From assembly GCA_045594445.1 (NCBI GenBank), contig JAZNYL010000092.1, forward strand, positions 787 through 64,786: 64,000 nt of DNA, given 5' to 3'. Position numbers and translations under genes: made by a program. Under the pieces are notes generated by a model that was not told the DNA's origin, made no database searches, and worked only from the letters and a program-made list of their open reading frames with translations. The stretch comes from Eubacteriales bacterium. Its GTDB lineage: Bacteria > Bacillota > Clostridia > Oscillospirales > CAG-272. Positions 14,938 through 31,279 of the stretch are shown piece by piece (the stretch's first letter is position 1; each line of letters opens with the position of its first letter).

Positions 14938-15933
14938 ATGGGCAAAAAGGTCACGCAGGCGGCAAGCAATCCGTTTGCGTATAGCGATACCAATAAGCGC
15001 TACTATACCTACGACTATTTTCTTAAGCGCACCTTTGGCGGTAAGGTTGCCAAGCTGCCCATTGACGCGGGCTTTACATGTCCGAATATTGACGGCAAAT
15101 GCGCGCACGGCGGCTGCATTTATTGCTCGGATAAGGGAAGCGGGGATTTCGCACCGCCACCCGACGTGCCGATCCTTGAGCAGATGGAGCGATCTCATGC
15201 GTTGATCAGCGGAAAATGGAAGACCGAAAAGGTTATCCCGTATTTCCAGGCGCACACAAACACCTATGCACCGCTGAAGATCTTGCGCGAAAAATACGAG
15301 CAAGCACTCGCATACCCGGGCGTGGTGGGGCTGAATATCGCGACGCGTGCCGATTGCCTCCCGCCGGACGTGGTCGCGTATCTATCCGAGCTTGCAAAGC
15401 GCACCTATTTGACGGTTGAGCTTGGCTTGCAAAGCTCCGACGACCAAACCGCAGCACTGATCAATCGCGGACACGATTTTTCCGCCTTTGTAAAAGGCTA
15501 CCGCGCCCTGCGCGCAGCAAGTCCGGATATTCACATCTGCATTCATTTGATCCTCGGCCTGCCCGGAGAGAACGAGCAGGAAATGCTGCAGAGTGTGCGC
15601 GACGTGGCAAAATTGCACCCCGACCAGGTCAAGCTGCATCTCTTGCATGTGATCAAAAACACCGTCATGGCCGATATGTACCTTGCGGGTGAATACGAGC
15701 CCATGACGCAGCAGACGTATACCGAAATTGTGGCCAAGGCGTTGACTCTGCTGCCGGCGGACACCGTGATCGCACGCCTGACGGGTGATGGCGCGCCGGA
15801 CGCACTGCTTGCCCCCGACTGGAGCAGGCGTAAAACGGCCGTGGTCAACGACGTGGACAAAATTCTGTACCAAAATGACCTGTACCAAGGAAAATATTAT
15901 AAATCGGAGGTAGATCATGTTTCTCAAGGCTAA
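14938..15933 (+). CDS. TIGR01212-family radical SAM protein
   Basis: CPNIDGKCAHGGCIYCS cluster, followed by the FQAHTNTYAP and ELGLQS blocks characteristic of the YhcC/TIGR01212 family. I chose the ATG at 14938, 7 nt after GAGGTG. Confidence 0.85.
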   Translation: MGKKVTQAASNPFAYSDTNKRYYTYDYFLKRTFGGKVAKLPIDAGFTCPNIDGKCAHGGCIYCSDKGSGDFAPPPDVPILEQMERSHALISGKWKTEKVIPYFQAHTNTYAPLKILREKYEQALAYPGVVGLNIATRADCLPPDVVAYLSELAKRTYLTVELGLQSSDDQTAALINRGHDFSAFVKGYRALRAASPDIHICIHLILGLPGENEQEMLQSVRDVAKLHPDQVKLHLLHVIKNTVMADMYLAGEYEPMTQQTYTEIVAKALTLLPADTVIARLTGDGAPDALLAPDWSRRKTAVVNDVDKILYQNDLYQGKYYKSEVDHVSQG

Positions 15934-18013
15934 ATGGATCTGGAAGGCAGGGGAGATCCTGTCGGATGAATTTGCGGATTTCGTTGCGGAATTTGTCGCG
16001 AGCGGTGAAGCACCCTACACGCTGACAATTGCTGCGGACTCCAATTATACCGTGTATATAAACGGCGAGCTTGCAGCCTTTGGCCAGTACGCCGACTATC
16101 CGACCTACAAGATCTGTGACCGTGTGGATGTCACCAAGCTTGTCAAGGCGGGAAAGAACCGACTGGCAGTCGTGGTCTGGTATTACGGTGACGATACCCA
16201 AACCTATATTCACGGCGAGCCCGGTGTGATCTTTGAGATACGCGAGCAGGATGCGCCAATTTGCTACTCCGATGAAAGTACGCTTTCGCGGCTGTCGCGC
16301 GACTATATTTCTCACGTCAGACAGCTGATCTCGGGGCAGCTGGGCTATACCTATCACTACGATGCTACCGCATACGATGGCTTTATTGAGCAGGACGCGA
16401 CCGACAGCTTTGCGCCAAGCGTGCTCATGCCCATGATTTCAACCGATTTTACTCTGCGTCCGATCAAGATGCTGGAGCTTGCTCCGAGAACACAAGCGCA
16501 GATGTGTATGCAAGGCCTTTTTGATTACGTGGAAAAGCAGCATACAAGCCCTGATAAGATGATGCAGCACGCAGCGCTTCGCCATCGCTATCCCGAGCAG
16601 ATCTCGGATATGCGCGGATTTTTCGGCTTTGATAAGCCTGTGAATTTCAAAACAGAGGACGCGGCACAGGGCATCTTCTTTGTTGTGGATCTCGGACAGG
16701 AGTGGGCGGGATTCCTTGATTTTGATATTGAAGTTCCGTATGATTGCCGCATTGATATCGGCTACGGCGAGCATCTGGCAGACGGCAGATGCCGCACCTC
16801 GGTACGCGGCTTCTCGGCAGATTATAAAGCAAAAAAGGGAAGAAACCAATACATGCACACGTTCCGTCGCTTTGGCTGCAGATACGTGCAGTTCTTTGTT
16901 CACGCCACCGAATTCACCGTGCATTACGCAGGTCTGAGGCCTACGCTGTATCCCGTGACCGCCAAGAAATTTGATAAGGGAAACCTGCTGCAGAACACTA
17001 TCTACGAGGTCTGCACAAACACGCTGATCCAATGCATGCACGAGCACTACGAGGATTGCCCCTGGAGAGAGCAGGCGCTCTATTGTATGGACTCGCGCAA
17101 TCAAATGCTGTGTGGCTATTATGCTTTTGGCGAAAAGGAATTTCCACGCGCCAACCTCAAGCTGATCTCCAAGGGCTTGCGCCCCGACGGTATTTTGACG
17201 CTTTGTTATCCAGCGGGCAAGGATTTTCCCATTCCTTCATTTTCTACCGTATATTTTATTCAGATGCAGGAATATATCGAGCACACGGGCGACGTTACGC
17301 TGGCAGAGGAATGCTATCCCGTTCTGGATACCATCATCCATACCTTTATAGGGAAACTGCAGGACAGCGGCCTGATCGAGAATTTCTACGGTGAGGGAGG
17401 CTACTGGAACTTCTACGAGTGGAGCCCCGGCATGAACGGCCACTTCTTTGAAAAGGTGCGCAGCATGGAGTGTCCCATCAACGCATTCTTCTCGCTTGCT
17501 CTGCAGAGCATGACCAAGATCTGCGATGCGCTGGGTAAGACCCGGGAGGCAGAGGAGTACAGCGAGCTTTCCAAGAGTGTCAACGCTGCAATCGCAAAAG
17601 AGTTCTACAACCCCGAAACCAAGCTTTTTGAGTCGTTTGACAATCGCTGCAGAGGAGAATACAGCGTACTGACCAACGCGCTTTGCATGCTGTGCGGTGC
17701 TGCCGATACGGTGGACAAGACCAATATTCTTCGTATTCTCGCAACCAACGGGAAAGACAACTGTGGATACACAGTACATCCCAATACACTTAGCATGAAC
17801 TCCTTCCGCTTTGACGCGCTGCTGGCATACGACAGGGAAGCGTACGCTAAGGTGATCATCGAAGAGATCGATCGCGACTATTTCTATATGCTGCGTAACG
17901 GTGCAACTACCTTCTGGGAGACCATCATTGGCCTTTCCGATTTCGGACACGCCGCAAGCCTGTGTCACGGTTGGAGCGCTTTGCCGATCTACTACTACGA
18001 AATACTGCTCTAA
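15917..18013 (+). CDS. GH78-like (alpha-L-rhamnosidase-like) six-hairpin glycoside hydrolase, cytoplasmic
   Basis: 698-aa ORF with no signal peptide. The N-terminal AKWIW..., the TLTIAADSNYTVYINGE block and the C-terminal ASLCHGWSALPIYYY are typical of bacterial rhamnosidase-like proteins. It overlaps the upstream gene by 17 nt, with a GGAGG SD. Confidence 0.55.
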   Translation: MFLKAKWIWKAGEILSDEFADFVAEFVASGEAPYTLTIAADSNYTVYINGELAAFGQYADYPTYKICDRVDVTKLVKAGKNRLAVVVWYYGDDTQTYIHGEPGVIFEIREQDAPICYSDESTLSRLSRDYISHVRQLISGQLGYTYHYDATAYDGFIEQDATDSFAPSVLMPMISTDFTLRPIKMLELAPRTQAQMCMQGLFDYVEKQHTSPDKMMQHAALRHRYPEQISDMRGFFGFDKPVNFKTEDAAQGIFFVVDLGQEWAGFLDFDIEVPYDCRIDIGYGEHLADGRCRTSVRGFSADYKAKKGRNQYMHTFRRFGCRYVQFFVHATEFTVHYAGLRPTLYPVTAKKFDKGNLLQNTIYEVCTNTLIQCMHEHYEDCPWREQALYCMDSRNQMLCGYYAFGEKEFPRANLKLISKGLRPDGILTLCYPAGKDFPIPSFSTVYFIQMQEYIEHTGDVTLAEECYPVLDTIIHTFIGKLQDSGLIENFYGEGGYWNFYEWSPGMNGHFFEKVRSMECPINAFFSLALQSMTKICDALGKTREAEEYSELSKSVNAAIAKEFYNPETKLFESFDNRCRGEYSVLTNALCMLCGAADTVDKTNILRILATNGKDNCGYTVHPNTLSMNSFRFDALLAYDREAYAKVIIEEIDRDYFYMLRNGATTFWETIIGLSDFGHAASLCHGWSALPIYYYEILL

Positions 18014-18084: not shown

Positions 18085-18113
18085 TTTACGGAATTCGGGT
18101 TTTGTGCTATAAT
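18085..18113 (+). promoter_or_regulatory. Sigma-A-type promoter of paralogue 1
   Basis: TTTACG (18085-18090), a 17-nt spacer, then TATAAT (18108-18113) with a TG extension (gTGcTATAAT). Confidence 0.65.
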
Positions 18114-18166
18114 AATACTGCGCATGTATGCGACACCAAAACTATTTTTCAAAGGAGATTTTCATC

Positions 18167-19768
18167 ATGAAAAGATTTCTTTCCGTGCTGCTCGCTTCTC
18201 TGATGGTTCTGTCCCTGGCAGCTGCTATGGTAGTTTCTACCTCCGCAGCTCTCGAAGGCGACTGGGCATCCTCCAGAAGCGGCAGTGACTACGAAGACGA
18301 AGGCAGCTACTGCCCCGCAGCAGGCTACCACTATGATCCCGAGCTGGGCTTCGTTCTTGATCCCCCCGTTTATGCAGACCAAACCACTCCCTTCGTTCAG
18401 ATGCACACCAGAAATCCTCTGGATCTGAAGGCTAACAACGATGGCAACGGTAACTCCGTTTCCGTTAAGGTAAGAGTACTTGAGTACGCTTACGACGGCG
18501 GCGAAGGCAAGGACCAGTGGATCGCGTTCACTCTGAACAGCCAGCCCATGTCCACTCCCGGCTCCACCAAGTACGGCGAAGGCCTCTGCATCCTGATCCG
18601 TGGCGGCGGCTTCGGTTCCGCACAGGTTCAGCCCTTCTACGTAGATGACGTAACCGGCAAGAGCTTCTCTCCTGCAGCTGCTTTCCCCTCCGTTGATGTT
18701 CCCATGAACGATCAGGATCAGGAAGAGTACACCTTTACCGTGAAGTACGTTGACGGTGGCTACGTTTACGCTGTAAACGGCACCGAGTTCGTTGCTGACG
18801 AAGCTTTGAACGCTCACTTTGACAGAGTATTTGCTGAAGGCGCATACGTTGGCGTTATTTGCCAGACCGGTGTTGCTAACACCAAGATTCAGCTCGCTAT
18901 CACCGAGTGGCAGGGCGACCTCCCCGTAGGTGACGACTCCGCAGATCCCGAAGAGGACCTCCGCCAGAAGGCTCCCATCGCTGATTCCGCAACCATTGAG
19001 GCTAACATGCCTGCAGTTCTGTGGGATTCTACCTGCAGAGACTTCAGAAAGATCTCCGTTTCCGGCGGTGAATACACCATCAACGATGACGGTTCCGTTA
19101 AGATCGCTACCCAGACTGTTTCTCCTTACGTTTCCTTCGGCGTTAAGTCCGAGGTTTCCTACGAAGCAGCTGATTTCCCCTACGTTGCAGTTCTGACCAG
19201 AAACTGCTGGGCTAACAGCGGTAACGTTTACTACTGCGCAGGTGATATTCTTTCCGCAGAGAACTCCTACAGCGAGAACTGGGATCCCACCGAGTATGAT
19301 TTCGGCGGCGGTTGGACCATGGGTATCATGGACTTCTCCGATTACACCGATGATGATGCAGAGACCAACGTAGGCGGTTGGGAAGGCAGAATCAACAGCA
19401 TCCGTGTTGGTTATGACTTTGCTGCTGACGACATCGCTAACGAAGAATACAACAATTTCGACATCGCATTCATCGGCGCATTCCGTTCCGTTGAAGAAGC
19501 TACCGCTTACACTCAGGCTTGGCTGGCTGCTAAGGGCTACAGCGCAGACGTTGTAACCGAGCCCGAGACCACCAAGGCTCCCGAGACCGAGCCCGAAACC
19601 ACCAAGGCTCCCGAGACCAACGCTCCCGATGCTACCGAAGCTCCTTCCGATGGTGAAGTTACCACCGAGGCTGAAAAGTCCGGCGGCTGCGGCTCCATCG
19701 TTGCTGCTCCCATCGTTGCTCTGATCGCTATGCTGGGCGTTGCATTCGTTGCAAAGAAGAGAGACTAA
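18167..19768 (+). CDS. Secreted two-domain protein of unknown function with a Thr/Pro/Glu stalk and a C-terminal GGCGS-TM-KKRD tail (paralogue 1 of 3)
   Basis: The ATG at 18167 follows AAAGGAGA. Signal peptide MKRFLSVLLASLMVLSLAAAMVVSTSAA, then a mature LEGDW start. The C-terminus is SGGCGSIVAAPIVALIAMLGVAFVAKKRD. Codon usage resembles rpsB/tsf. The 18128 start in the ORF track precedes the SD. Confidence 0.85.
   Translation: MKRFLSVLLASLMVLSLAAAMVVSTSAALEGDWASSRSGSDYEDEGSYCPAAGYHYDPELGFVLDPPVYADQTTPFVQMHTRNPLDLKANNDGNGNSVSVKVRVLEYAYDGGEGKDQWIAFTLNSQPMSTPGSTKYGEGLCILIRGGGFGSAQVQPFYVDDVTGKSFSPAAAFPSVDVPMNDQDQEEYTFTVKYVDGGYVYAVNGTEFVADEALNAHFDRVFAEGAYVGVICQTGVANTKIQLAITEWQGDLPVGDDSADPEEDLRQKAPIADSATIEANMPAVLWDSTCRDFRKISVSGGEYTINDDGSVKIATQTVSPYVSFGVKSEVSYEAADFPYVAVLTRNCWANSGNVYYCAGDILSAENSYSENWDPTEYDFGGGWTMGIMDFSDYTDDDAETNVGGWEGRINSIRVGYDFAADDIANEEYNNFDIAFIGAFRSVEEATAYTQAWLAAKGYSADVVTEPETTKAPETEPETTKAPETNAPDATEAPSDGEVTTEAEKSGGCGSIVAAPIVALIAMLGVAFVAKKRD
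19559..19618 (+). repeat. In-frame 30-bp tandem duplication within the stalk-coding region of paralogue 1
   Basis: GAGCCCGAGACCACCAAGGCTCCCGAGACC (19559-19588) is repeated at 19589-19618 with one mismatch. It encodes EPETTKAPET twice. Confidence 0.9.
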
Positions 19769-19798
19769 TTCTTAACTGAATTATCACCCTGAATTCAA

Positions 19799-19829
19799 GG
19801 GGCTGACGCGATGCGTCAGCCCCTTTTTT
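19799..19829 (+). terminator. Rho-independent terminator of paralogue 1
   Basis: GGGGCTGACGC-gat-GCGTCAGCCCC followed by TTTTTT. Confidence 0.9.
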
Positions 19830-19879
19830 GTTTGTTAATAGTGTTGCTTTTGGGGAATCAGTTTTGTACAAAATCACCA

Positions 19880-19908
19880 TTTACAGTTTTTTGAGTTAGT
19901 GATATAAT
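19880..19908 (+). promoter_or_regulatory. Sigma-A-type promoter of paralogue 2
   Basis: TTTACA (19880-19885), a 17-nt spacer, then TATAAT (19903-19908) with a TG extension (gTGaTATAAT). The flanking CACCATTTACAG is shared with the paralogue 3 promoter. Confidence 0.65.
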
Positions 19909-19946
19909 CTATATATAAAATTATCTCAAAGAAAAGGAGAAGAAAC

Positions 19947-21506
19947 ATGAGAAAATTTTTGACAATCATGCTTGCTATGTGTCTGTTGCTTGCAACTATG
20001 ACCATGCTGGCAATCCCTGCAAGCGCCGCTGAGGTAGAAGGAGACTGGGTGACCTCCAGAGCAGGCGACGCATATGAAGAGGGCGTTACGGATTACACTC
20101 CCGCTGCAGGCTATACGTACACTCCCGAGGGCTTCCAGACGATTGCTCCCGATTTTACTAACTGCAATCCTTACGTTCAGGCACACACAAAGAATGCCTA
20201 TAACCTCAAGGACCCCAATGCTGACGGAAACGGCAACGCGCTTTCCGTAAAGTTTACCGTCCAGGATTTTGCATACGGCGGCGAATTCGGTAATAAGGAC
20301 GAATGGGTCGCCATTACGCTCAACAGCGAGCCTGTTGTAACCCAGGGTAACCCTGAATACGGCGCCGGTCTGTGCATTCTGATCCGTGGTAACGGAGGCG
20401 GTTCTGCAACAGGCCAGCCCCATTACGTCGATAAAGAAAACAATCGCTTCACCCTGTTCATTTCCGGTCAGATCAATCCCGAGCTCAATGACAAGGATCA
20501 GGAGGTTTACACCTTCAGCATCAAGCATGATGGAACTAACTACGTGATGAATTTGTGCGGCACCGAGTTTACCGATCCTACCGGTGTTCTTAACACCATT
20601 TTTGACGAGCAGTGTGCAAATGGGGCATATCTCGGTATCACTCTGATGTCCACCGAAGCAGAAACCACCGCTGCTTTTGTAATCAACGAGTTCCAGGGCG
20701 CTGTTCCTTACGGTGAGGATAGCGCTGAGCCCGAGGCAAACGTTAAGAATTTTGCAGAGATTGCTGATTCTGCAACTGTTCCCGCAGGCCAGCCTGCAGT
20801 AAAGTGGGATGGCAATATTGAGCAGTGCGATAAGATCTCCATCGCTCAGGCTGACTATACTGTCCAGGAGAGCGGCCTTGTTACCTTGGTATGCAATGGC
20901 AATGCCCCCTATATCAACTTCATGCTCAAAAACGAAATCTCTTATGAAGCAACCGATTTCCCGGTTGTCGCAATCCTGACAAGAAATTGCTGGGCGTCTT
21001 CGGGCAGCATCTATTACATGTCCGGTAAGACCCTGGGATGCGGTGCTGATAACCGGATGGACTTCATTGTCGATGAGATTGAACTTGGCGAGGGCTGGGG
21101 ACTTTCCCTGGTAGATCTTAGAGAAGATCCCGAGTGGGAGGGAAGAATCAACGGTATCCGTTGCGATTTTTCTGAAGTAGATTATACGGATGAGCAATAC
21201 AATACGTTTGACGTTGCATACTTTGCCGCATTCCGTACCGAAGAGGATGCACAGCAGTATGCAAAGGATTACCTGATCGCGCTGCTTGGCAAGCTGCCCG
21301 AGACCACCGAAAAGCCTACCGAAGAGCCTACCACCGAAGCTCCCACTACCGAGGCAAAGACCGATGCTCCCACCGAAGAGATTCCCTCCGAGGAAGTTTC
21401 CACCGATGCAGAGCAGTCCGGCGGCTGCAAGTCCGTAGCGATCGCTCCCGTTGCGGCACTGATCGCATTTGTCGGCGTTGCATTCGTTGCAAAAAAGAAG
21501 GACTAA
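19947..21506 (+). CDS. Secreted two-domain protein, paralogue 2 of 3
   Basis: SD is AAAGGAGA. The signal peptide ends ...AIPASAA and the mature protein starts EVEGDW. It shares conserved blocks with paralogues 1 and 3. The C-terminus is SGGCKSVAIAPVAALIAFVGVAFVAKKKD. Confidence 0.85.
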   Translation: MRKFLTIMLAMCLLLATMTMLAIPASAAEVEGDWVTSRAGDAYEEGVTDYTPAAGYTYTPEGFQTIAPDFTNCNPYVQAHTKNAYNLKDPNADGNGNALSVKFTVQDFAYGGEFGNKDEWVAITLNSEPVVTQGNPEYGAGLCILIRGNGGGSATGQPHYVDKENNRFTLFISGQINPELNDKDQEVYTFSIKHDGTNYVMNLCGTEFTDPTGVLNTIFDEQCANGAYLGITLMSTEAETTAAFVINEFQGAVPYGEDSAEPEANVKNFAEIADSATVPAGQPAVKWDGNIEQCDKISIAQADYTVQESGLVTLVCNGNAPYINFMLKNEISYEATDFPVVAILTRNCWASSGSIYYMSGKTLGCGADNRMDFIVDEIELGEGWGLSLVDLREDPEWEGRINGIRCDFSEVDYTDEQYNTFDVAYFAAFRTEEDAQQYAKDYLIALLGKLPETTEKPTEEPTTEAPTTEAKTDAPTEEIPSEEVSTDAEQSGGCKSVAIAPVAALIAFVGVAFVAKKKD

Positions 21507-21520
21507 AATATCATAATTTT

Positions 21521-21556
21521 AAGGGCTGACGCTTTGGCGTCAGCCCTTGTTATTTT
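21521..21556 (+). terminator. Rho-independent terminator of paralogue 2
   Basis: AAGGGCTGACGC-tttg-GCGTCAGCCCTT followed by gTTATTTT. The CTGACGC/GCGTCAG core is the same as in the other two terminators. Confidence 0.8.
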
Positions 21557-21593
21557 GCACGAAATGGGTACACATATTTGTGGAATGTCACCA

Positions 21594-21622
21594 TTTACAG
21601 AAAAATGAAAAAGTGATATAAT
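21594..21622 (+). promoter_or_regulatory. Sigma-A-type promoter of paralogue 3
   Basis: TTTACA (21594-21599), a 17-nt spacer, then TATAAT (21617-21622) with a TG extension (gTGaTATAAT). Confidence 0.65.
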
Positions 21623-21661
21623 AAATGTGTATTCAATAATTCCTAATTAAGGAGAGACAAA

Positions 21662-23200
21662 ATGAAAAGATTGCTTGTTTTAGCTTTGACAGCAGTGATG
21701 ATTCTGTCCGTTGCATCCGTGATGATCATTCCCGGCGCAGCAGCGGTTGAAGGTGACTGGGTTGCAACCCGCGCAGCTGACGACTATCTGGATCCGGATA
21801 GCTACAGACCGTATTGCGGTTTTCACTATGAAGTAGACAAGGGCCTTGTGTTGGATTCTGCTGACTATACCAACAACACTCCCTATACGCACATTCATAC
21901 CAAGACCCCTTATAATCTCAAGGACACCAACGCAGCAGGTAACGGCAGATCCATCTCCTTGGAGTTTACCGTAACCGATTTTGCTTATGAAGGCAGTGAC
22001 CACTGGGTCGGCATCTCTCTGCACAGCAAAGAGATCTTCGCTCCCGGTCAGAAGGGATATGGCGAGGGCGTTTCCGTACTGATCCGCGGAGCAGGCGAAG
22101 GCGCTGCTGTTGCGCAGTTCTTCTATCTCAATGATGACAGAGGATACACGCTGTTCAGCCAGCAGCACGTCAACATCCCGCTCAACGAGCAGGGCCAGGA
22201 AATCTATACCTTTGAGGTAGAGTACACAGGCTCCGGATATGCTTTTTACGTATGCGGCACCAAGTTTGAGGACGTGACTAAGTTGGCGGACGAGACTCTG
22301 GATACTTACTGTGCAGACGGCGCATACGTGGGTATTTCCTTCTATACTACCGCGTCCGGTTCTTCCATCGGAGCGAACATCAGCAAGTTCCAGGGTGAGG
22401 TTCCTTTTGGTGAGGACAGCATGGAGCCCGAGGAAAACCGTAACAACTTCGCGCCTATCGCGGATTCTTCCACTGTTCCGGAAGGTCAGCCTGCACTGAT
22501 CTGGAATTCTGCTAAGGAGCAGTTCAACCAGTTCCAGAGCTCAAATATCGACCTTGTTGCCAATGACGACGGTACTATGCGTGCAACTGCATTGACCGCT
22601 TCTGGTTACATAATCTTCTCTCCTAAGGTTGCCGTTTCCTACGAGGCATCGGATTTCCCCGTGATTGCGATTCTGACCAGAAATTGCTTTGCAGAATCCG
22701 GCCTGGTATTCTATAGTGCAGGTAAGAATTTGAGTGCTCAGCCCGATTGCAGCTGTGAGATTGATATTGCTGAGTATGAGTACGGTGATGAATGGTGCAT
22801 GGGTATTCTGGATCTGACCGGTGACCTTGACTGGCAGGGCAGAGTCAACATGATTCGTATGGACATTCAGAACGTTGACTATACCGATGAAGAAATGAAG
22901 TATTATGATATTGCATACATCGCATGCTTCCGCACCATTGAGGATGCTGAGCAGTATGCAAAGGATTATCTGATCGGCCTGCTTGGTGCAATGCCCGAGA
23001 CGACCGAGAAGGAAACCAATCCTCCCAAGACCGAAGCTCCCGAAACCGAAGCACCTACTGCAGAGACCGAAGCAGAGGGCGGTGAGCAGACCACCGAGGC
23101 AGAGCAGGAGAATAAGGGCTGCGGTTCTGTGATCGCTGCTCCCATAGTTGCTCTGATCGCGCTGCTGGGTATTGCATTCGTTGCAAAAAAGAGAAATTGA
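21662..23200 (+). CDS. Secreted two-domain protein, paralogue 3 of 3
   Basis: SD is AAGGAGAG. The signal peptide ends ...IIPGAAA and the mature protein starts VEGDW. The C-terminus is KGCGSVIAAPIVALIALLGIAFVAKKRN. Confidence 0.85.
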   Translation: MKRLLVLALTAVMILSVASVMIIPGAAAVEGDWVATRAADDYLDPDSYRPYCGFHYEVDKGLVLDSADYTNNTPYTHIHTKTPYNLKDTNAAGNGRSISLEFTVTDFAYEGSDHWVGISLHSKEIFAPGQKGYGEGVSVLIRGAGEGAAVAQFFYLNDDRGYTLFSQQHVNIPLNEQGQEIYTFEVEYTGSGYAFYVCGTKFEDVTKLADETLDTYCADGAYVGISFYTTASGSSIGANISKFQGEVPFGEDSMEPEENRNNFAPIADSSTVPEGQPALIWNSAKEQFNQFQSSNIDLVANDDGTMRATALTASGYIIFSPKVAVSYEASDFPVIAILTRNCFAESGLVFYSAGKNLSAQPDCSCEIDIAEYEYGDEWCMGILDLTGDLDWQGRVNMIRMDIQNVDYTDEEMKYYDIAYIACFRTIEDAEQYAKDYLIGLLGAMPETTEKETNPPKTEAPETEAPTAETEAEGGEQTTEAEQENKGCGSVIAAPIVALIALLGIAFVAKKRN

Positions 23201-23212
23201 ATCTGATATTTG

Positions 23213-23243
23213 GAAAGGACTGACGCCAAGCGTCAGTCCTTTC
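23213..23243 (+). terminator. Terminator-like hairpin of paralogue 3
   Basis: GAAAGGACTGACGC-caa-GCGTCAGTCCTTTC. The T-tract is weak (it merges with the next promoter's TTGACA), so termination efficiency is uncertain. Confidence 0.6.
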
Positions 23244-23272
23244 TTGACAAATAAAAGAGAATGTAGTATAAT
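23244..23272 (+). promoter_or_regulatory. Consensus sigma-A promoter of the 23306 lipoprotein gene
   Basis: Perfect TTGACA (23244-23249), a 17-nt spacer, then perfect TATAAT (23267-23272). Confidence 0.7.
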
Positions 23273-23305
23273 AGATACATTACACCAAGGAAAGGAAATG
23301 TTTCC

Positions 23306-25357
23306 ATGAACACAAAAAGAATCCTGTCATTATTGGCTCTTTGTCTTTGCCTTGTCATGATGCTGCAGTTTGCTGCATGCAATCAGGGCGGAACCGGTGA
23401 AGAGCAGTCTTCTTTGGATCAGACTGATACAAAAAATACAGACACCGAAACCCAAGCTCCCGAAACAGAGCAGGGCTCGGAAGAGAGTACCGAAGATCAG
23501 ACTCTGCCTGCAACCCCCGATTTCACGGTTGCTGCCAAGCCCTCGATCAGCTTTGACAAGACCGTACAGGCAACTGAAAACGGTTCTGCATACGACGTCA
23601 CGACCGCTACCGGCCTTGCATATTCCGCAACCGGATATAAGAGCTTTGCTGACGGTGCGTTTACAATCAATACAGGGCTTACGGTCACACTCGGCGATCA
23701 ATTTGCCGATACCTTTAACCGTCTGACGCTTTGCTACGTATCCGACGCGCCCATGGAGTGCACCGTGACTTACGAGAGAAACGGCAGAACATTGAACGAT
23801 TTGTTCTATCTGGAGGCAGGAGAGCAGACCTTCTGCGCGCTGACCAAGGGATATCTGGAGGGCATGAAAGCCTCCAAGCTGACCTCGATCTCCTTTGATA
23901 CCTGCGAAGAGGTTGACGCCAAGTTCGTGCTTTGCGACGTCAAGACCGAGGAATACGAGGTCTATGCGGACGAAGTATATTACATCGAAAACGAAAGCTA
24001 CGTGCTTGGCGTGCGCCTTTCCTGGGGCGGCGGCATTTGCTATCTGCGCGACCTCAAAAACAGAATCGGCGGCATTGAAAACCTGATCAACCAGGCTGAT
24101 ACCGGCAGACTTGTACAGCAGTCCTATTACGGCACGCACGGCAACGGTGAATACCAGGACGGCGATTACAACGGCGTACGCTGGCCTTATAACCCTGTTC
24201 AGGGCGGTGACGTACACGGCAACCCCAGCCGTATCATTGATATCGTGGTTGGAACGCACTCGCTTTACGTCAAGGCGCAGCCGCAGGATTGGGGACACGA
24301 CGGTGAGCTGACCATCAGCTACATGGAGAATATTTACGTGCTGGAAGAGGATCACATTCGTGTGGATAACAGATTCGTGGATTTCTCCGGTTGGGAGCAC
24401 AGATATGCCAATCAGGAGCTGCCCGCCTTCTATACACTGAGCTTCCTTGGTGAATTCACCTATTATGCAGGCTCCAAGCCTTGGCAGGACGAGCCGCTGA
24501 CCTCCAGAAAGGATCTGAACTTCTGGGGCGATGCTGCTTATCACGATGATTGCACCTTCAAGCTTCGATACAGTAACACCGAGACTTGGTGTGCATGGTC
24601 CAACCGCTACGTAGATTACGGAATCGGCTTGTTCGTTCCCGGTGTAGACGTATTTTTGGCCGGCAGACATGCATATAACGGTAGTAAGGATGCATACAAC
24701 GGTGCTACCAACTACGTAGCCCCCTTGTGTACCATCAAGCTTGAATCCTTTGAGCCGATCGAATACAGCTACATGATGACCACGGGCTCGATTGAAGAGA
24801 TCCGAAGCGTATTTAAAGCCAATAAGGATTTTGCAACAAACGAAACTCTGCATCACAACTATATCAGTGACCGACTGGAGGACGAGGGCGCAGCAATCAA
24901 GATGGATATGCTTCAGTTTGCTGATAAAAGCAGCACACTCAAGCTGACGCCCACCAGCAATACCACCGTAGGCTTCAGCGATGAGCAAAAGGCTGCATTG
25001 CTGACCATCGTAGCAGCATCTGACCCGCACGTCACCATCGATTACACCAAGTCAGATCCCACACTCAAAGCAGAGGATTATTCCGTGATCAAGATCACGT
25101 ATATGATCCCCACCACCAACAGTATGAAATATTACACGGCAGAGCTGTTCTTGTCAACCGGCACGTCTATGGGAGCCGAGGGCGGCAAGTCCGTTCGTAC
25201 CGAGCTCGTGGCAGACGGTGAGTATCATACCGCAGAAATTAAGGTATCGAGCCTGAATTTCTGGAGTGGTAATGTCAATGCGATCCGCTTTGACTACTTT
25301 GATGCTTGTGCCGAGGGCGATGTCATGTACGTGCAGTCCATCGAGCTGAGTAACTAA
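23306..25357 (+). CDS. Large lipoprotein of unknown function; its C-terminal module resembles domain 2 of the paralogue trio
   Basis: Signal peptide with lipobox (LQFAAC) followed by a Glu/Thr/Gln linker. The central region contains GRLVQQSYYG...RWPYNPVQGGD. The C-terminus ...NFWSGNVNAIRFDYF...VMYVQSIELSN parallels W[EQ]GR[IV]N.IR in the trio. Confidence 0.75.
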   Translation: MNTKRILSLLALCLCLVMMLQFAACNQGGTGEEQSSLDQTDTKNTDTETQAPETEQGSEESTEDQTLPATPDFTVAAKPSISFDKTVQATENGSAYDVTTATGLAYSATGYKSFADGAFTINTGLTVTLGDQFADTFNRLTLCYVSDAPMECTVTYERNGRTLNDLFYLEAGEQTFCALTKGYLEGMKASKLTSISFDTCEEVDAKFVLCDVKTEEYEVYADEVYYIENESYVLGVRLSWGGGICYLRDLKNRIGGIENLINQADTGRLVQQSYYGTHGNGEYQDGDYNGVRWPYNPVQGGDVHGNPSRIIDIVVGTHSLYVKAQPQDWGHDGELTISYMENIYVLEEDHIRVDNRFVDFSGWEHRYANQELPAFYTLSFLGEFTYYAGSKPWQDEPLTSRKDLNFWGDAAYHDDCTFKLRYSNTETWCAWSNRYVDYGIGLFVPGVDVFLAGRHAYNGSKDAYNGATNYVAPLCTIKLESFEPIEYSYMMTTGSIEEIRSVFKANKDFATNETLHHNYISDRLEDEGAAIKMDMLQFADKSSTLKLTPTSNTTVGFSDEQKAALLTIVAASDPHVTIDYTKSDPTLKAEDYSVIKITYMIPTTNSMKYYTAELFLSTGTSMGAEGGKSVRTELVADGEYHTAEIKVSSLNFWSGNVNAIRFDYFDACAEGDVMYVQSIELSN

Positions 25358-25369
25358 ATCAAACCAAAA

Positions 25370-25407
25370 CAGGGAGAAGGCCAAGGCTTTCTCCCTGCAT
25401 TTTTATT
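25370..25407. terminator. Bidirectional terminator between the convergent lipoprotein and regulator genes
   Basis: CAGGGAGAA-ggccaaggct-TTCTCCCTG followed by caTTTTTATT, with an A-rich tract on the other side. Confidence 0.7.
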
Positions 25408-25428: not shown

Positions 25429-26541
25429 TTAAATAATACAGCTTTTCAGCTCCGGGTGATCGTCTGCGACATTCATTGCACGGTGAAGGCAGTTGTCAAT
25501 CAATTGCTTGCGTGGTGTGATGGTATCATCCTCACAAAATACGCTGACTCTGTTGTCAAGCAGCATGATTGATTCTTCCATGTGACCGGATTTGAGGACT
25601 TTATAGTATTCTTTGCACAGATGATGCAGATCAGCATAACGAGTCTTTGCTAACGCAAGTTGATCTGTCTGGGCGTACAATTCGATCAGACCTGTAAGTA
25701 ACAAAAGCTTTTGATATACTTGCTCATAGGGTAATGCGTCTCCTCCACTTAAAAGTGCATCAATAATACGAAGCATATACTCCATATATACGATTCGCTG
25801 CTGATTTGTTTTGTCTGAAAGGGATGTGACGAGGTTGATATTTTTTATCAAATAACGTGCCTGATTGGTAAAGCTCTTTTTGCAATATTCTTCAGCCATA
25901 TGTGATTCTCCGGCGATTTTTGCAATCTCTGCAGATCTGTAATAGCGGTCTCCGTATTCAAACGGGAGTTTTTCAAGAAGCAACATGGCGCGGGGAAAAT
26001 CTCCGACTCTCGTCAATACAGAGGCAAGCAGATAACGTGCCTCTGCCTGCATGTCAGCATCATCGGAGTAATGAATAATGCAGTTTGCAAAACGCTCACA
26101 CTCCTTTAGCATGGCCTTTTGATCGGTAAAGTTAGGGAATTGTCCCCAGTAGAGCTCCGAGATATCCAGCAAGTATTTTGCCGCACGGACGTGATATGGA
26201 TGCTCGGAGAAATACTCATACATCATGCGATATCCCTGTTCTCCGATTTCCGGAGCAGGGGGCCATTCACAGGGATTCATGGATTCTAAAGCCAAGCATT
26301 CTCTCAGAATTTTTTCGAATTCATCATCAAGGTGATCGTCGCTGATTCCCAATAATACATCAGTACTGACGTGCAATGCATGAGCCAACGGCACAATTTG
26401 AGAAATGTCCGGCATGCCAGTATCGGTTTCCCATTTTGAAATGGCTTGATTGCTGACACCAATCATTTCGGCCAGTTCTTGTTGTGTGAATTGCGAGTTT
26501 TTCCGAAAAACTTTCAATCTTTGTCCAAATGTAGTTTTCAT
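25429..26541 (-). CDS. XRE-family HTH transcriptional regulator with a large helical-repeat (TPR-like) C-terminal domain (RNPP-like architecture)
   Basis: The N-terminal FGQRLKVFRKNSQFTQQELAEMIGVSNQAISKWETDTGMPD is a canonical HTH_3. The remaining roughly 300 aa are alpha-helical-repeat-like. SD is GGAGGAA. Confidence 0.8.
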   Translation of the reverse strand: MKTTFGQRLKVFRKNSQFTQQELAEMIGVSNQAISKWETDTGMPDISQIVPLAHALHVSTDVLLGISDDHLDDEFEKILRECLALESMNPCEWPPAPEIGEQGYRMMYEYFSEHPYHVRAAKYLLDISELYWGQFPNFTDQKAMLKECERFANCIIHYSDDADMQAEARYLLASVLTRVGDFPRAMLLLEKLPFEYGDRYYRSAEIAKIAGESHMAEEYCKKSFTNQARYLIKNINLVTSLSDKTNQQRIVYMEYMLRIIDALLSGGDALPYEQVYQKLLLLTGLIELYAQTDQLALAKTRYADLHHLCKEYYKVLKSGHMEESIMLLDNRVSVFCEDDTITPRKQLIDNCLHRAMNVADDHPELKSCII

Positions 26542-28432: not shown

Positions 28433-31279
28433 TTATGATAAAGTAGTTGTATCGGTATTTGTGGGGGATTCATCGTGGGACTCGTCGGACGATACTGTTT
28501 CAGTCGTCTTTGGCACGGGCAATTCCTTAGGCTTTTTGGGCTTGGGAACCGCAAAGAATTCACCGTAGCCGTTAATCTTGCAAAGTCTCTTTTCAAAAAT
28601 GATCAGAAGGAAGAATACGATTACCGAAATGATCGAAATCCCCGTGCCCAGCACAAGCTCCTTGGGGCAATAGATCATTTGCACCTCGTGCTCACCCACA
28701 TCCTCAATATAATAACCGACAAGTGCGTTTGCAAGCTCAAAGGTCTCCACCTGCTCGCCGTCAATCAGGACCTGCCAGCCCTTATCAAAGGGAATGGTGG
28801 TGGTGATCAGCTGGTGCTGCTTGGTGGTGGTAATCGTACCGGGGAGATAGTCCTCGCGGTAATTCTCCGGATCAATCTGTACGTTGCCTTGCTGCAATCT
28901 GGTGATTGCTTCGGTAAATAGCTGCATATCCAGCGAGTAGATAAAGGGCTTTTCAAGATCCTGCAGGAGGTAGAAGTTGTCGTAATCGTTTTTGATGGTC
29001 AGCTTGAGCTCAAGATCCTTTTTGTCAAAATCACCGATTGAAACGATTCTCCAGGTGTTGTTGTCACCCCACTTGCCAACCGATTTGCCGTTTGCAGTCA
29101 TATTGACCGATCTGGAATACACGGTGGGGAAGTAAACGAACAGCTCGGTATGCTTGGGTACCTCGTATTCAAAGATGATTGAGCCGCCGTCTCCCTTGTA
29201 AAGGTCGTGGCTGGCAGCCGAGCCCTTGGTAACGTCCTTGGTGGTCATGGAGAGCTGCTTTGCAGGAACGAAGATCTGCAGCGTTTCCTGCTCGCCAAGC
29301 ATCATGGAGATCATAGCGTTCATACGCTCAAAGGGATTTTCGTAATTGTCAAGCTGGAAATTGACGAAATCCTCGTCAACCGCGTAAGCAATGCTCATGA
29401 CGTAGGGGTTCTGATAAACTACATAGGTCTCGTTGTCATAATCGTCCGAGTCAAACGCGGGTTCGCCGTAGTACTTGTCGTAATCCTTGTCGGTCATGAT
29501 ATACTTGATGCCGAGCAAGGAATCGCTGACCGGTGTTTCACCCTGATACTGTGACCAGTGCGATTTGGAGGAATAGCCCATCATTCTCAGGAAATAAATG
29601 GTGTCGGCGTTGAGTGTCGAGGTCGAGTTGGAAAGACCGCGGATCTGCAGCGCAAGGTTATCGTTGAGCTTGCGGTGATAGGTCTTTTCCATGCGGTAGA
29701 AGGAGGTATCGTTTTCCTGCACGGTGTTGATAATCGGTCGCACCGTGTCAAGATAATCGTTGTAATAAGAATATTTGGTAAAGGTTACGTCCTTGTCAAG
29801 GTCGTTGAGATCACAAAGACCGCTGATAAACATTTCCACACAAACAAAGAAGACGAGCACGCAGGAAACAAGCTCCTTGTTTCTGACGCGCGGTAAGAGA
29901 CAAACCAGAATGGTATAAACGATCAGACAACCGATAGTCAGCCAGACCGTCTGGAAATCGTGCACGTCCACGTATTCGTTGAGGTCTTCCTTGATCATGG
30001 GCGAGAATTCCTGCAGAATGATCACGAACAGACCAATCAGGGCTGCAATACCGATCATGGGCTTGCGGCTGACCGTGCGCATATTGGCAAACGCTCTGTA
30101 AGCCATGACAATCAGGAAGAAGCAGAGCATGAAGCTGTAGCGGTTGTTGAGCCAGTTGGGCTTCTGGAATCCGTGCCATACAAGGTCGATCGAGCTTGTG
30201 GCAAAGCTGAACACAAAGATGGTGATCAGAACTGCGTACGCGATCTTTTCGCCGGTTTTGAACTTCTTGTTGAAGAAGAACATGGGCACCAGCAAAAGCG
30301 TCAGCACGCCGCAGTAAACGAAGGGAAGACCGGCAGGACGCACGGTGTCGTAGGACGAGGGAAGGAACTTATACAGCAGTTCAAGGAAGTTGAGTCGCGA
30401 GGTGAACGCCCAGTTGGGATCCGAGAAATCGGTTTTACCAAAGGTCAGAGAGTAATACGCGGTGAATACGATAAACGCTGCTATACCGATCGAGAGCACC
30501 GAGTAGAATGCGATACGCATAAACGAGCGGCCGCCATGGTAAATCTCACCGTAAGGATTGTTTGTTTGCTTGAAGCCCCACAGATAAGCGAAGAAATAGA
30601 TTGCAACCGCAATGCAGACCATATAGCCGATATAGTAGTTGCTGACAAGCGTGAGCGTCAGGAATACGACGAATACCTTGTATTTGCCGTACTTGATCAA
30701 CTGCTCCACGCCGTACATGACAAGCGGGAACCAAATAACCGCGTCGATCCACATGGTGTTGTTCTGCTGCGTGATGCAGTAGGACATCAGCGCGTACATC
30801 ACCGAGAAGGCTATGATACCGATGCGGTTGATGCGTGCTTCGGACTTATGCAGATAAAACGCCATCGTGCCTGCGCAGAAGCCTGCCTTGACCATGAACA
30901 TGAACAACAGCGCCTCACACATTCTGTCCTCGGGGAACAGACAAACGAGGTAGGAGAAGGGGCTTGCGATATAATATTCGTAAATACCCATGAACTCACC
31001 GCCGAGCGCACGAGAGAAGGAGTAGATGATGCTGGTATCACCGTTGATCACGAAATTGCGCAGGGCTTCAAAGAAATAGACGTACTGACCGTTGAGGTCC
31101 AGGACCAACACGCAGCCGTTCCCAAACGGGTAAAGCCCGCGTGACAGGTACATCAGGTAGACCAGCACGGCAGGGATGAGCATGGCGATTAAAATATACC
31201 AATATTCAGAAAGCACGGATCTGCAACGCGTTGTGCAGGTAAGCAATCCGTTCTTGATAAGAGCTTGGTTGCGTTTCAT
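28433..31279 (-). CDS. YfhO-family polytopic membrane protein (GT-C-like glycosyltransferase family)
   Basis: 948 aa with many TM segments. The N-terminal region YPFGNGCVLVLDLNGQYVYFFEALRNF...SFSRALGGEFMGIYEYYIASPFSY is typical of YfhO proteins. Confidence 0.8.
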   Translation of the reverse strand: MKRNQALIKNGLLTCTTRCRSVLSEYWYILIAMLIPAVLVYLMYLSRGLYPFGNGCVLVLDLNGQYVYFFEALRNFVINGDTSIIYSFSRALGGEFMGIYEYYIASPFSYLVCLFPEDRMCEALLFMFMVKAGFCAGTMAFYLHKSEARINRIGIIAFSVMYALMSYCITQQNNTMWIDAVIWFPLVMYGVEQLIKYGKYKVFVVFLTLTLVSNYYIGYMVCIAVAIYFFAYLWGFKQTNNPYGEIYHGGRSFMRIAFYSVLSIGIAAFIVFTAYYSLTFGKTDFSDPNWAFTSRLNFLELLYKFLPSSYDTVRPAGLPFVYCGVLTLLLVPMFFFNKKFKTGEKIAYAVLITIFVFSFATSSIDLVWHGFQKPNWLNNRYSFMLCFFLIVMAYRAFANMRTVSRKPMIGIAALIGLFVIILQEFSPMIKEDLNEYVDVHDFQTVWLTIGCLIVYTILVCLLPRVRNKELVSCVLVFFVCVEMFISGLCDLNDLDKDVTFTKYSYYNDYLDTVRPIINTVQENDTSFYRMEKTYHRKLNDNLALQIRGLSNSTSTLNADTIYFLRMMGYSSKSHWSQYQGETPVSDSLLGIKYIMTDKDYDKYYGEPAFDSDDYDNETYVVYQNPYVMSIAYAVDEDFVNFQLDNYENPFERMNAMISMMLGEQETLQIFVPAKQLSMTTKDVTKGSAASHDLYKGDGGSIIFEYEVPKHTELFVYFPTVYSRSVNMTANGKSVGKWGDNNTWRIVSIGDFDKKDLELKLTIKNDYDNFYLLQDLEKPFIYSLDMQLFTEAITRLQQGNVQIDPENYREDYLPGTITTTKQHQLITTTIPFDKGWQVLIDGEQVETFELANALVGYYIEDVGEHEVQMIYCPKELVLGTGISIISVIVFFLLIIFEKRLCKINGYGEFFAVPKPKKPKELPVPKTTETVSSDESHDESPTNTDTTTLS

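Follow-up and report, generated by a model that had tools for sequence, protein, structure and literature searches.

An array of separately promoted, predicted surface proteins with a candidate Cys-type C-terminal sorting signal in an uncultured gut Clostridia genome

Introduction

What are three neighbouring and strongly diverged genes that each appear to keep a promoter and a terminator of their own, and where in the cell would their products act? This question is raised by an array of three head-to-tail plus-strand genes, recovered by open reading frame (ORF) calling from a stretch of 64,000 nucleotides of an uncultured gut Clostridia genome (contig JAZNYL010000092.1), hereafter the window. 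A sequence-only reading of this DNA had described the array as a tandem triplication of a complete expression module for an unrecognised, secreted two-domain protein. Based on sequence comparisons and structural models, we propose here that the array encodes three individually expressed, surface-displayed glycan-binding proteins whose C-terminus carries what may be a new Cys-type signal for sorting or anchoring, a reading to which we assign a probability of roughly 0.55. The competing explanations overlap with this one on the surface location of the proteins, and differ from it in the role given to their domains and to the Cys.

The three genes and their products

The genes of the array are gene 1 (18167-19768, plus strand, 533 amino acids), gene 2 (19947-21506, plus strand, 519 amino acids), and gene 3 (21662-23200, plus strand, 512 amino acids), and the repeat period of the units at the DNA level is 1.69-1.79 kb. 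Each gene has a Shine-Dalgarno site and a signal peptide. In the case of gene 1, a longer ORF opens at ATG 18128; however, the true start is most likely ATG 18167 (MKRFLS), since this codon has an AGGAG Shine-Dalgarno site 8 nt upstream, and since transcription is predicted to start before it; with ATG 18128, the message would be nearly leaderless. End-to-end alignment with MAFFT gives 46% and 44% identity of paralogues 2 and 3 to the product of gene 1, and the pairwise values among the three are 46-48% when only aligned residues are counted. The paralogy over the full length claimed by the sequence-only reading is thus confirmed, its by-eye estimate of 40-50% identity agrees with the computed 44-48%, and the mature N-termini that it gave as [LV]EGDW are LEGDW, VEGDW, and VEGDW. 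The conserved blocks that it listed are mostly exact, the inexact ones being GNGR in copy 3, WIAFTLNS in copy 1, and GQEIYTF in copy 3.

The architecture is best followed in the product of gene 2, which was modelled with AlphaFold2. It consists of a signal peptide (residues 1-28; 19947-20030), the strands of an N-terminal domain (residues 34-250; 20046-20696), a C-terminal domain (residues 285-447; 20799-21287), a disordered linker (residues 448-491), and a C-terminal tail (residues 492-519). Gene 1 encodes the same succession of a signal peptide, a concanavalin A (ConA)-like N-domain, a C-domain similar to carbohydrate-binding modules (CBMs), a linker of PETT repeats, and a Cys-bearing tail, and the architecture of gene 3 matches both. 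In all three proteins, the C-domain is followed by a low-complexity linker of about 45 residues, rich in Thr, Glu, Pro, and Ala. The C-domain had been placed before at residues 270-470; the domain is there, but its real end is near residue 447, and what follows is the disordered linker and the transmembrane tail.

A Cys-bearing tail and its possible roles

The tail, which had not been reported before, is formed in all three proteins by G-C-[GKA]-[SA], about 21 hydrophobic residues, and KKKD (...SGGCGSIVAAPIVALIAMLGVAFVAKKRD in one of the window proteins, with two counterparts in the other paralogues), and is encoded by positions 19685-19768, 21420-21503, and 23117-23200. Given that every copy carries the linker and this Cys-containing transmembrane segment, the proteins are predicted to be exported and held at the membrane rather than released, and describing them as secreted put the emphasis in the wrong place, since they should stay on the cell.

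The Cys (C494) is invariant in 61 out of 61 aligned family members, down to about 31% identity (the lowest in alignment A2), and is one of just 13 invariant positions in the 61-sequence alignment. The 150 best matches of an exhaustive profile search, described below, include 143 newly listed representatives, 119 of which have the tail; most of the others are fragments, and five end in a plain transmembrane segment plus KKKK, with no Cys. In a position profile built from 197 tail-bearing proteins, picked by a pattern that demands the Cys, the preceding position is Gly in 83% of the sequences, position +1 is G, K or A, and position +2 is S, A or G in 95%. The hydrophobic stretch begins at +3 without any spacer, the basic cluster is found 19-24 residues after the Cys (mode 21), the commonest ends are KKKD and KKKED, and the 40 residues before the tail contain 21% Thr and 19% Glu. 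Between the window paralogues, the tail is 61-79% identical, compared with 41-48% for either globular domain, and the DNA encoding it is the best-conserved repeat in the array.

Moreover, the tail is present on proteins outside the family. Together with a similar linker, it is found with the unrelated ectodomains of P0080 (534 amino acids, no Pfam family), of a 1239-residue NAGPA (PF09992) protein, L023, encoded next to a family member in an Oscillospiraceae metagenome-assembled genome (MAG), and of a metagenomic fragment, L030, with an SGNH-like DIHPN..GH motif. In P0080 and the L030 fragment, the common part is limited to the linker and the tail. Because the tail is unusually conserved and present on these unrelated passenger proteins, its sequence suggests that it is dedicated to sorting or anchoring, as a signal of the Cys-containing type similar to MYXO-, Synerg-, and CGP-CTERM.

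Further carriers were sought in three ways. A profile of 62 tails returned seven tiny ORFs, and a 40-residue consensus query a single candidate; word-index searching is ill-suited to short hydrophobic queries. A degenerate DNA pattern for AFVAKK[KR][DN]-stop detected 10 loci in metagenome contigs, which correspond to two family genes, the non-family carrier L030, two Cys-less sortase-like tails, and five chance matches. The two sortase-like proteins, L028 and L032, end in ...QTGDAG, a transmembrane segment, and AFVAKK[KR]D; as they share the transmembrane segment and the Lys-cluster end with the Cys tails, only the signature motif separates the two kinds of tail.

When the tails alone were scanned against NCBIfam, they fell below every curated cutoff, with 16.0 bits for Synerg-CTERM (cutoff 22.5), 17.2 for PGF-CTERM (24.5), and 16.8 for Rumino_NPXTG (23.5), plus a further sub-threshold match to the MYXO-CTERM-protein model; none of the models TIGR04564, TIGR04288, MYXO-CTERM, and others scored above its cutoff. 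The tails lack an LPXTG-like or [LN]PxTG motif, and the sub-threshold match to NF033846 covers model positions 5-30, which represent the transmembrane and basic part. Judged by its sequence, the tail is therefore a member of no described signal family.

The explanation that best survives next to a dedicated signal, even if a doubtful one, is that the tail is a plain type I membrane anchor whose juxtamembrane Cys has a family-specific role, for instance in an intermolecular disulfide, so that the proteins would be surface binding proteins without any sorting pathway. The sub-cutoff scores would be expected in this case, and so would the outcome of a search for sorting enzymes, in which regular expressions for CPBP proteases (PF02517; EExxxR...FxxxH...HxxxN) and sortases (TLxTC), applied to all ORFs of the window and of the related loci L001-L024 (about 450 kb), found no CPBP protease, sortase or other candidate nearby. 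This last result says little, since known sorting enzymes are usually unlinked to their substrates. The Cys-less tails of some distant members indicate that simple membrane anchoring can suffice, and the 'AFVAKKKD' end, being also present on sortase-type tails of similar metagenomes, is generic. What a plain anchor accounts for poorly is the invariance of the Cys across such divergent proteins, the conservation of the G-C-[GKA]-[SA] frame and of its narrow distance to the basic cluster, the far better conservation of the tail than of the ectodomain, and its recurrence on unrelated passenger domains.

Probable separate transcription and long-term maintenance of the copies

The promoter-like sites of the array are located on the plus strand at 18085-18113 (TTTACG, 17 nt, TG-n-TATAAT) for gene 1, and at 19880-19908 and 21594-21622 (in both, TTTACA, 17 nt, TG-a-TATAAT, with 11 of the 12 consensus positions) for genes 2 and 3, confirming the three promoters with a 17-nt spacer and a TG-extended -10 hexamer claimed before. 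All of them are near-consensus, extended, sigma-70-type sites, with the TG preceding the -10 hexamer, and, together with the 12/12 promoter of the lipoprotein gene that follows the array, they are the best plus-strand matches in an 11-kb scan. The combination TTTACG-17-TATAAT with the TG is also present upstream of first-position orthologues (L001, L004, L006, L010, L011, L012, L014, L017, L018, and L020).

Downstream of the genes, terminator-like hairpins are found, likewise on the plus strand, at 19797-19825 (a 13-bp stem followed by a T-run; -26.8 kcal/mol, by RNAfold on the 70 nt 3' of the stop codon), 21520-21549 (-25.7 kcal/mol), and 23214-23242 (-29.2 kcal/mol). The last one has a weak T-tail, TTTCTT, and failed the T-run rule of the scanner. 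The shared core CTGACGC-n3/4-GCGTCAG proved to be real, with three exact occurrences in the whole window, one 3' of each gene, where the chance expectation is zero. The T-tail of hairpin 3 merges into the -35 element, TTGACA, of the lipoprotein gene promoter (23214-23272), and similarly compact terminator-promoter junctions occur in L008, L009, L011, L013, L015, and L017.

This layout is not restricted to the window. Of the 52 family genes in related loci, 46 show a promoter-like site that fits the consensus at 10 or more of its 12 positions; it nearly always reads TTTAC[AG]-17-TG-n-TATAAT and lies 30-55 nt upstream of the start codon. A hairpin of -12 kcal/mol or stronger, the stem sequence of which varies between genomes, follows 47 of the 52. 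The exceptions, with very short intergenic gaps, are probably co-transcribed. The claim that each copy has promoter-like and terminator-like elements of its own is hence borne out, and the conservation of both elements supports the separate transcription of each gene, which, judging from the promoter sequences, is probably strong.

The gene order, as seen in about 17 independent loci from MAGs or metagenomes, is a radical SAM gene, a GH78-like gene, 1-6 family genes, one or two copies of a lipoprotein gene (about 685 amino acids), an optional XRE regulator, and RuvB. A separate array of four copies, again adjoining a GH78-like gene, is present in the more distant locus L022 (31% identity). In L024, where the GH78-like gene is missing, the radical SAM gene is directly followed by a family gene. 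In a neighbour-joining tree, the three window genes fall into three separate clades, or orthogroups, each of which contains orthologues from most genomes with their relative order kept; further clades are limited to some genomes, and the expansion of L022 is independent. Orthologues of the three genes show ratios of non-synonymous to synonymous substitution rates (dN/dS) of 0.06-0.30 at dS 0.24-1.02, and the window paralogues, intact and diverged, 0.28-0.33 at a saturated dS of 1.5-1.8. From this orthogroup structure, the saturated dS, and the dN/dS of the orthologues, we conclude that the duplications are old, that the copies are kept by purifying selection, and that the array gains and loses members.

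The sequence-only reading was therefore right in rejecting a recent amplification. Its 'triplication' describes the three copies of this genome, but the relatives hold between one and six at what is a single syntenic locus, and the family is better seen as one of birth and death. A recent amplification or an assembly artefact is out, in view of the 44-48% identity, the saturated dS, the orthogroups, and the presence of the same array in independent assemblies. A phage or mobile origin is out as well: the viral fold search returned generic jelly-roll tail or receptor-binding proteins with low template-modelling (TM) scores, the neighbours are chromosomal housekeeping genes, and the window itself is chromosomal (RuvABC, rpsB-tsf-pyrH-frr, and polC-like genes). 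As a separate observation, dS is lowered for family gene 1 and the lipoprotein gene, with 0.24-0.27 against RGIG5376, and 0.53 and 0.37, respectively, against L010.

Strongly expressed and variable arrays could also encode abundant coat proteins similar to an S-layer (cf. the archaeal S-layer glycoproteins), which would vary the surface against phages or host immunity rather than capture nutrients. The near-consensus promoters and strong Shine-Dalgarno sites, suggestive of very high expression, would suit such a coat, as would the stalk with a C-terminal anchor (which has weak matches to the C-terminus of the Haloferax S-layer glycoprotein model TIGR04216), the changing copy number, the dS of gene 1 and of the lipoprotein gene below that of the flanking genes, a hint of recombination, and the resemblance of the viral fold matches to phage tail or receptor-binding jelly rolls. 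We consider it improbable, given that the three proteins have no SLH, CWB2 or other wall-binding Pfam domain, that their orthologues are overall under purifying and not diversifying selection, that neither invertible elements nor simple-sequence switches were found at the promoters, and that a strong promoter is kept by every copy, which leaves no set-up for alternating expression.

A new sequence family with known folds

None of the three paralogues has a match at or near threshold in Pfam or NCBIfam, and a profile search against all PDB sequences gave nothing at E<=10, in agreement with the previous statement that they belong to no characterised sequence family. A word-indexed search of 5.8 billion proteins retrieved 80 clusters, none with a Pfam domain; only three of them have a source name, which is 'hypothetical protein' from Clostridia, Ruminococcaceae or Oscillospiraceae MAGs, and the named cluster members of the window proteins are likewise hypothetical proteins from MAGs. 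The exhaustive profile search of 1.84 billion representatives expanded the family to 914 clusters (defined at 50% identity) at E<=1e-3, with 202 of them at E<=1e-30. Most of these are 520-620 amino acids long, with the full-length architecture described above, and a few form part of much larger proteins. Every source-named member comes from an uncultured Clostridia or Oscillospiraceae MAG, including some from sheep colon and water-deer colon.

Short variants of 385-424 amino acids also occur (L008 3627-4859, L009 3734-5008, P0076, P0145, and P0148), which consist of the N-domain only, an amphipathic 'GNGL..ELFG' linker replacing the Thr/Pro-rich one, and the Cys tail. In the closest relatives, one of them adds a further member to the array, which is cleanly missing from the window.

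The AlphaFold2 model of full-length paralogue 2, based on the 61-sequence alignment, has a mean predicted local distance difference test (pLDDT) score of 86.7 and shows a signal helix, a beta-sandwich (34-250), a second sandwich (285-430) with a helix cap (432-447), a disordered region (456-502), and a terminal helix (502-516). When the C-domain was modelled alone (residues 263-452), the pLDDT rose to 95.1. A PDB fold search with the full-length model retrieved the L-lectin region of SraP, the mannose lectin YwfG, and the legume lectin of M. jannaschii, along with GH16 laminarinases, a carrageenase, a xyloglucan endotransglycosylase (XET), CBM66, and the Hc domain of botulinum toxin, with probabilities up to 1.0, target-normalised TM-scores of about 0.4-0.5, and 8-16% identity. 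The ConA-like jelly-roll fold was recovered with a Foldseek probability of 1.0 to 4m00, 7yl4, and 7elv (target-normalised TM-scores of 0.29-0.53). The best match of the C-domain alone is CBM86 of Xyn10A from Roseburia intestinalis (6sgf; E 6e-7, target-normalised TM-score of 0.64-0.67), followed by the CBM6 entries 1uy1, 1o8s, and 1gmm, with identities of 7-14%. GH16 and legume-lectin entries are missing from its top 50, where the lectin fold is represented only by VIP36 and calreticulin at low ranks; the N-domain is thus the most likely source of such matches in the full-length search.

The earlier statement that neither domain could be assigned holds for sequence families, but not for folds: the N-domain can be placed as ConA/legume-lectin/GH16-like and the C-domain as CBM86/CBM6-like. 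The structural comparison proposed at the time thus gave hits at the fold level only, which lower the novelty of the globular part; what is new here is the sequence family, not the fold classes. The models place both domains in fold classes that most commonly serve to recognise carbohydrates, and, because the catalytic ExDx(x)E motif of GH16 is absent from all three paralogues, they most likely represent non-catalytic glycan-binding modules. The conserved polar and aromatic residues D118, W120, R147, E186, Y188, and Y228 alternate along strands, as they would on one face of a sandwich. At the sequence level, neither the lectin models of Pfam and NCBIfam nor the CBM models of Pfam match, and the identity to L-type lectins is 8-11%.

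An enzyme of the GH16 type was rejected for want of the motif, and the wider proposal that the N-domain is a catalytic glycoside hydrolase (GH) or polysaccharide lyase (PL) of GH16-, GH7- or PL7-like type, making the proteins surface-anchored enzymes with a CBM, is the weakest of those considered here and quite unlikely, for the laminarinases, carrageenase, and XET among the fold matches, the cleft-like alternation of the (near-)invariant D118, R147, E186, Y188, and Y228, and the GH-like genes in which the neighbourhood is rich are outweighed by a candidate strand with one conserved acidic residue only, by best fold matches that are lectin modules (SraP, YwfG, and the legume lectin), and by the lack of any match at E<=1 to a Pfam GH or PL family, PF00722 included.

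Proposed mechanism and comparison with known systems

Under the reading that we favour, that of anchored glycan-binding proteins with a Cys-type signal, each gene would be monocistronic, with its own extended -10 promoter and its own hairpin stop, as suggested by the sequence and its conservation across genomes. The products would be exported through Sec and cleaved after an A-x-A site, leaving [LV]EGDW at the N-terminus, and would then display the ConA/legume-lectin-like jelly roll and the CBM86/CBM6-like sandwich, with folds known from models and a putative function in binding. These domains would stand on the stalk of about 45 residues rich in Thr, Glu, and Pro, which might speculatively be O-glycosylated, and the tripartite tail would retain the protein in the membrane with the KKKD cluster in the cytoplasm, as topology rules predict. 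Finally, by analogy, the Cys at the outer boundary of the membrane might be lipid-modified and the helix then cut by an intramembrane protease. The differences between the paralogues, concentrated in the globular domains, and the variation from one to six copies fit a diversification of binding specificity.

The closest parallels to the tail are the MYXO-, Synerg-, CGP-, and JDVT-CTERM signals, for which lipidation of the Cys and cleavage by CPBP/Rce1-like myxosortases have been proposed (bioRxiv 10.1101/2023.06.07.544157) and shown experimentally for TraA/MrtX (PMC11980579). No such signal in Clostridia is described in the first of these works, nor was one found by searching the full-text literature. 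As in that class, the tail of the window proteins is a tripartite signal at the extreme C-terminus, with a signature, a transmembrane helix, and a basic cluster; the signature is short, Gly/Ser-rich, ends in an invariant Cys, and abuts the helix without a spacer. The three non-family carriers hint that the signal may be modular as well. CGP-CTERM proteins also have a Thr-rich region before the signal. Contrary to the described members, however, the window tail stays below all curated model cutoffs (16 versus 22.5 bits for Synerg-CTERM, the best named one), and its host is presumably a monoderm, whereas the described bacterial systems are found in diderms and two of them, MYXO-CTERM and Synerg-CTERM, are associated with type II secretion. 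That the tail is a previously undescribed Cys-type sorting signal of monoderm gut Clostridia, with a lipid-modified or conjugated Cys and a helix removed by a dedicated intramembrane protease, is a tentative proposal drawn from this analogy. The tail is, in any case, the more novel element of the proteins: it varies an established type of signal, the lineage has no described case, and no curated model matches it.

With regard to the ectodomain, SraP from Staphylococcus aureus (4m00) and YwfG from Lactococcus (7yl4) also have a distal ConA-like jelly roll followed by another beta-sandwich on a surface protein, but the identity is 8-11%, with no Pfam lectin match, and the window proteins end in a Cys-containing transmembrane tail instead of an LPXTG/sortase anchor. 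CBM86 (6sgf) and CBM6 share the beta-sandwich fold of the C-domain, and CBM86 comes as well from a gut Clostridia setting; nevertheless, the identity to CBM86 is 14% with no match at the sequence-family level, the C-domain, to which a C-terminal helix is added, is longer (about 165 versus about 130 residues), and it is not attached to a catalytic domain. As a set, the proteins recall the SusE/F-like surface glycan-binding proteins (SGBPs) of Bacteroidota and the multi-CBM surface proteins of Ruminococcus and Roseburia, which are likewise non-catalytic, surface-tethered, with folds of carbohydrate-binding type, and which also expand and diverge as neighbouring paralogues. Unlike these systems, the array has no linked transporter or complete utilisation locus, and the anchoring chemistry is different.

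Several of these results weigh against our reading. The similarity of folds is moderate (TM-scores of about 0.5-0.67, 8-16% identity), and ConA/CBM-type fold classes also hold enzymes and purely structural proteins. Regarding the tail, just three non-family carriers were found, a few distant members have the Cys-less KKKK version, the basic cluster consists mainly of Lys with a final Asp, where the described ones are rich in Arg, and the window and related loci contain no candidate sorting enzyme. In addition, no transporter is encoded by the adjacent genes, so that they do not form a complete glycan-utilisation locus.

Neighbouring genes

The gene that follows the array forms a similar module on the plus strand (23244-25397), with the 12/12 promoter at 23244-23272, the gene at 23306-25357, and a terminator at 25370-25397. 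It encodes a predicted lipoprotein of 683 amino acids, whose signal ends in ..LQFAAC, without any Pfam or NCBIfam family; the gene is always found beside the array, in two copies in the case of L006. The C-terminal stretch of about 85 residues is weakly similar to the C-domain of the family (hhalign E 3e-4, probability 37-41%) and includes a W-x-G-x-[IV]-N-x-IR-x-D motif. The lipoprotein may thus carry a relative of the C-domain tethered by the N-terminus instead, and for this reason the surface proteins encoded here may work as a set.

Upstream, the GH78-like gene (15917-18013, plus strand; alpha-L-rhamnosidase six-hairpin domain, PF17389, 1.2e-26), with no signal peptide, adjoins the array in most loci, including the distant L022, and is absent from L024. 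The adjacency would suit a functional link with the array, whereas its loss in L024 and the missing signal peptide would not. The first 17 nt of the GH78-like gene (15917-15933) are shared with the end of the radical SAM gene (PF04055 and PF16199), which suggests that the two genes are co-transcribed, and this pairing is kept across loci.

On the other side, the XRE/HTH_3 regulator (370 amino acids, 25429-26541, minus strand) is found only in the window, L008, L010, and L012 among the syntenic loci. Its dS of 0.04-0.09, versus 0.7-0.9 for the flanking RuvB, GH78-like, and radical SAM genes in the same genomes, suggests a recent exchange or insertion. A YfhO-family membrane protein (948 amino acids, 28433-31279, minus strand; PF09586, E 3e-181) is encoded near the array in all close relatives; this family contains glycosyltransferase-like members. 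Other glycan-related genes are scattered in the window, namely a GH99-like gene below the Pfam cutoff (459-2147), a lipoprotein gene with a GH42-like segment (4291-6255), and a GH2 gene (56060-58405), and their sequences fit a glycan-foraging organism.

Implications

If our reading is correct, the family would be a prominent group of surface glycan-binding proteins in these uncultured Clostridia, probably made in large amounts, with about 900 clusters at 50% identity that have no annotation, and the variation in copy number and sequence between close relatives would offer a handle on their substrate or host-glycan specificity. Should the tail prove to be only an anchor, the array would still be a tidy case of birth and death among lectin-like surface proteins, helpful for annotation even if unsurprising. 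If the tail is instead a dedicated sorting signal, Cys-dependent C-terminal sorting of the MYXO-CTERM/myxosortase kind would extend to Gram-positive bacteria and annotators would gain a new anchor motif; and, if lipidation and cleavage take place as well, these proteins would be C-terminally lipid-anchored surface lectins, the first such system in Bacillota and one independent of type II secretion.

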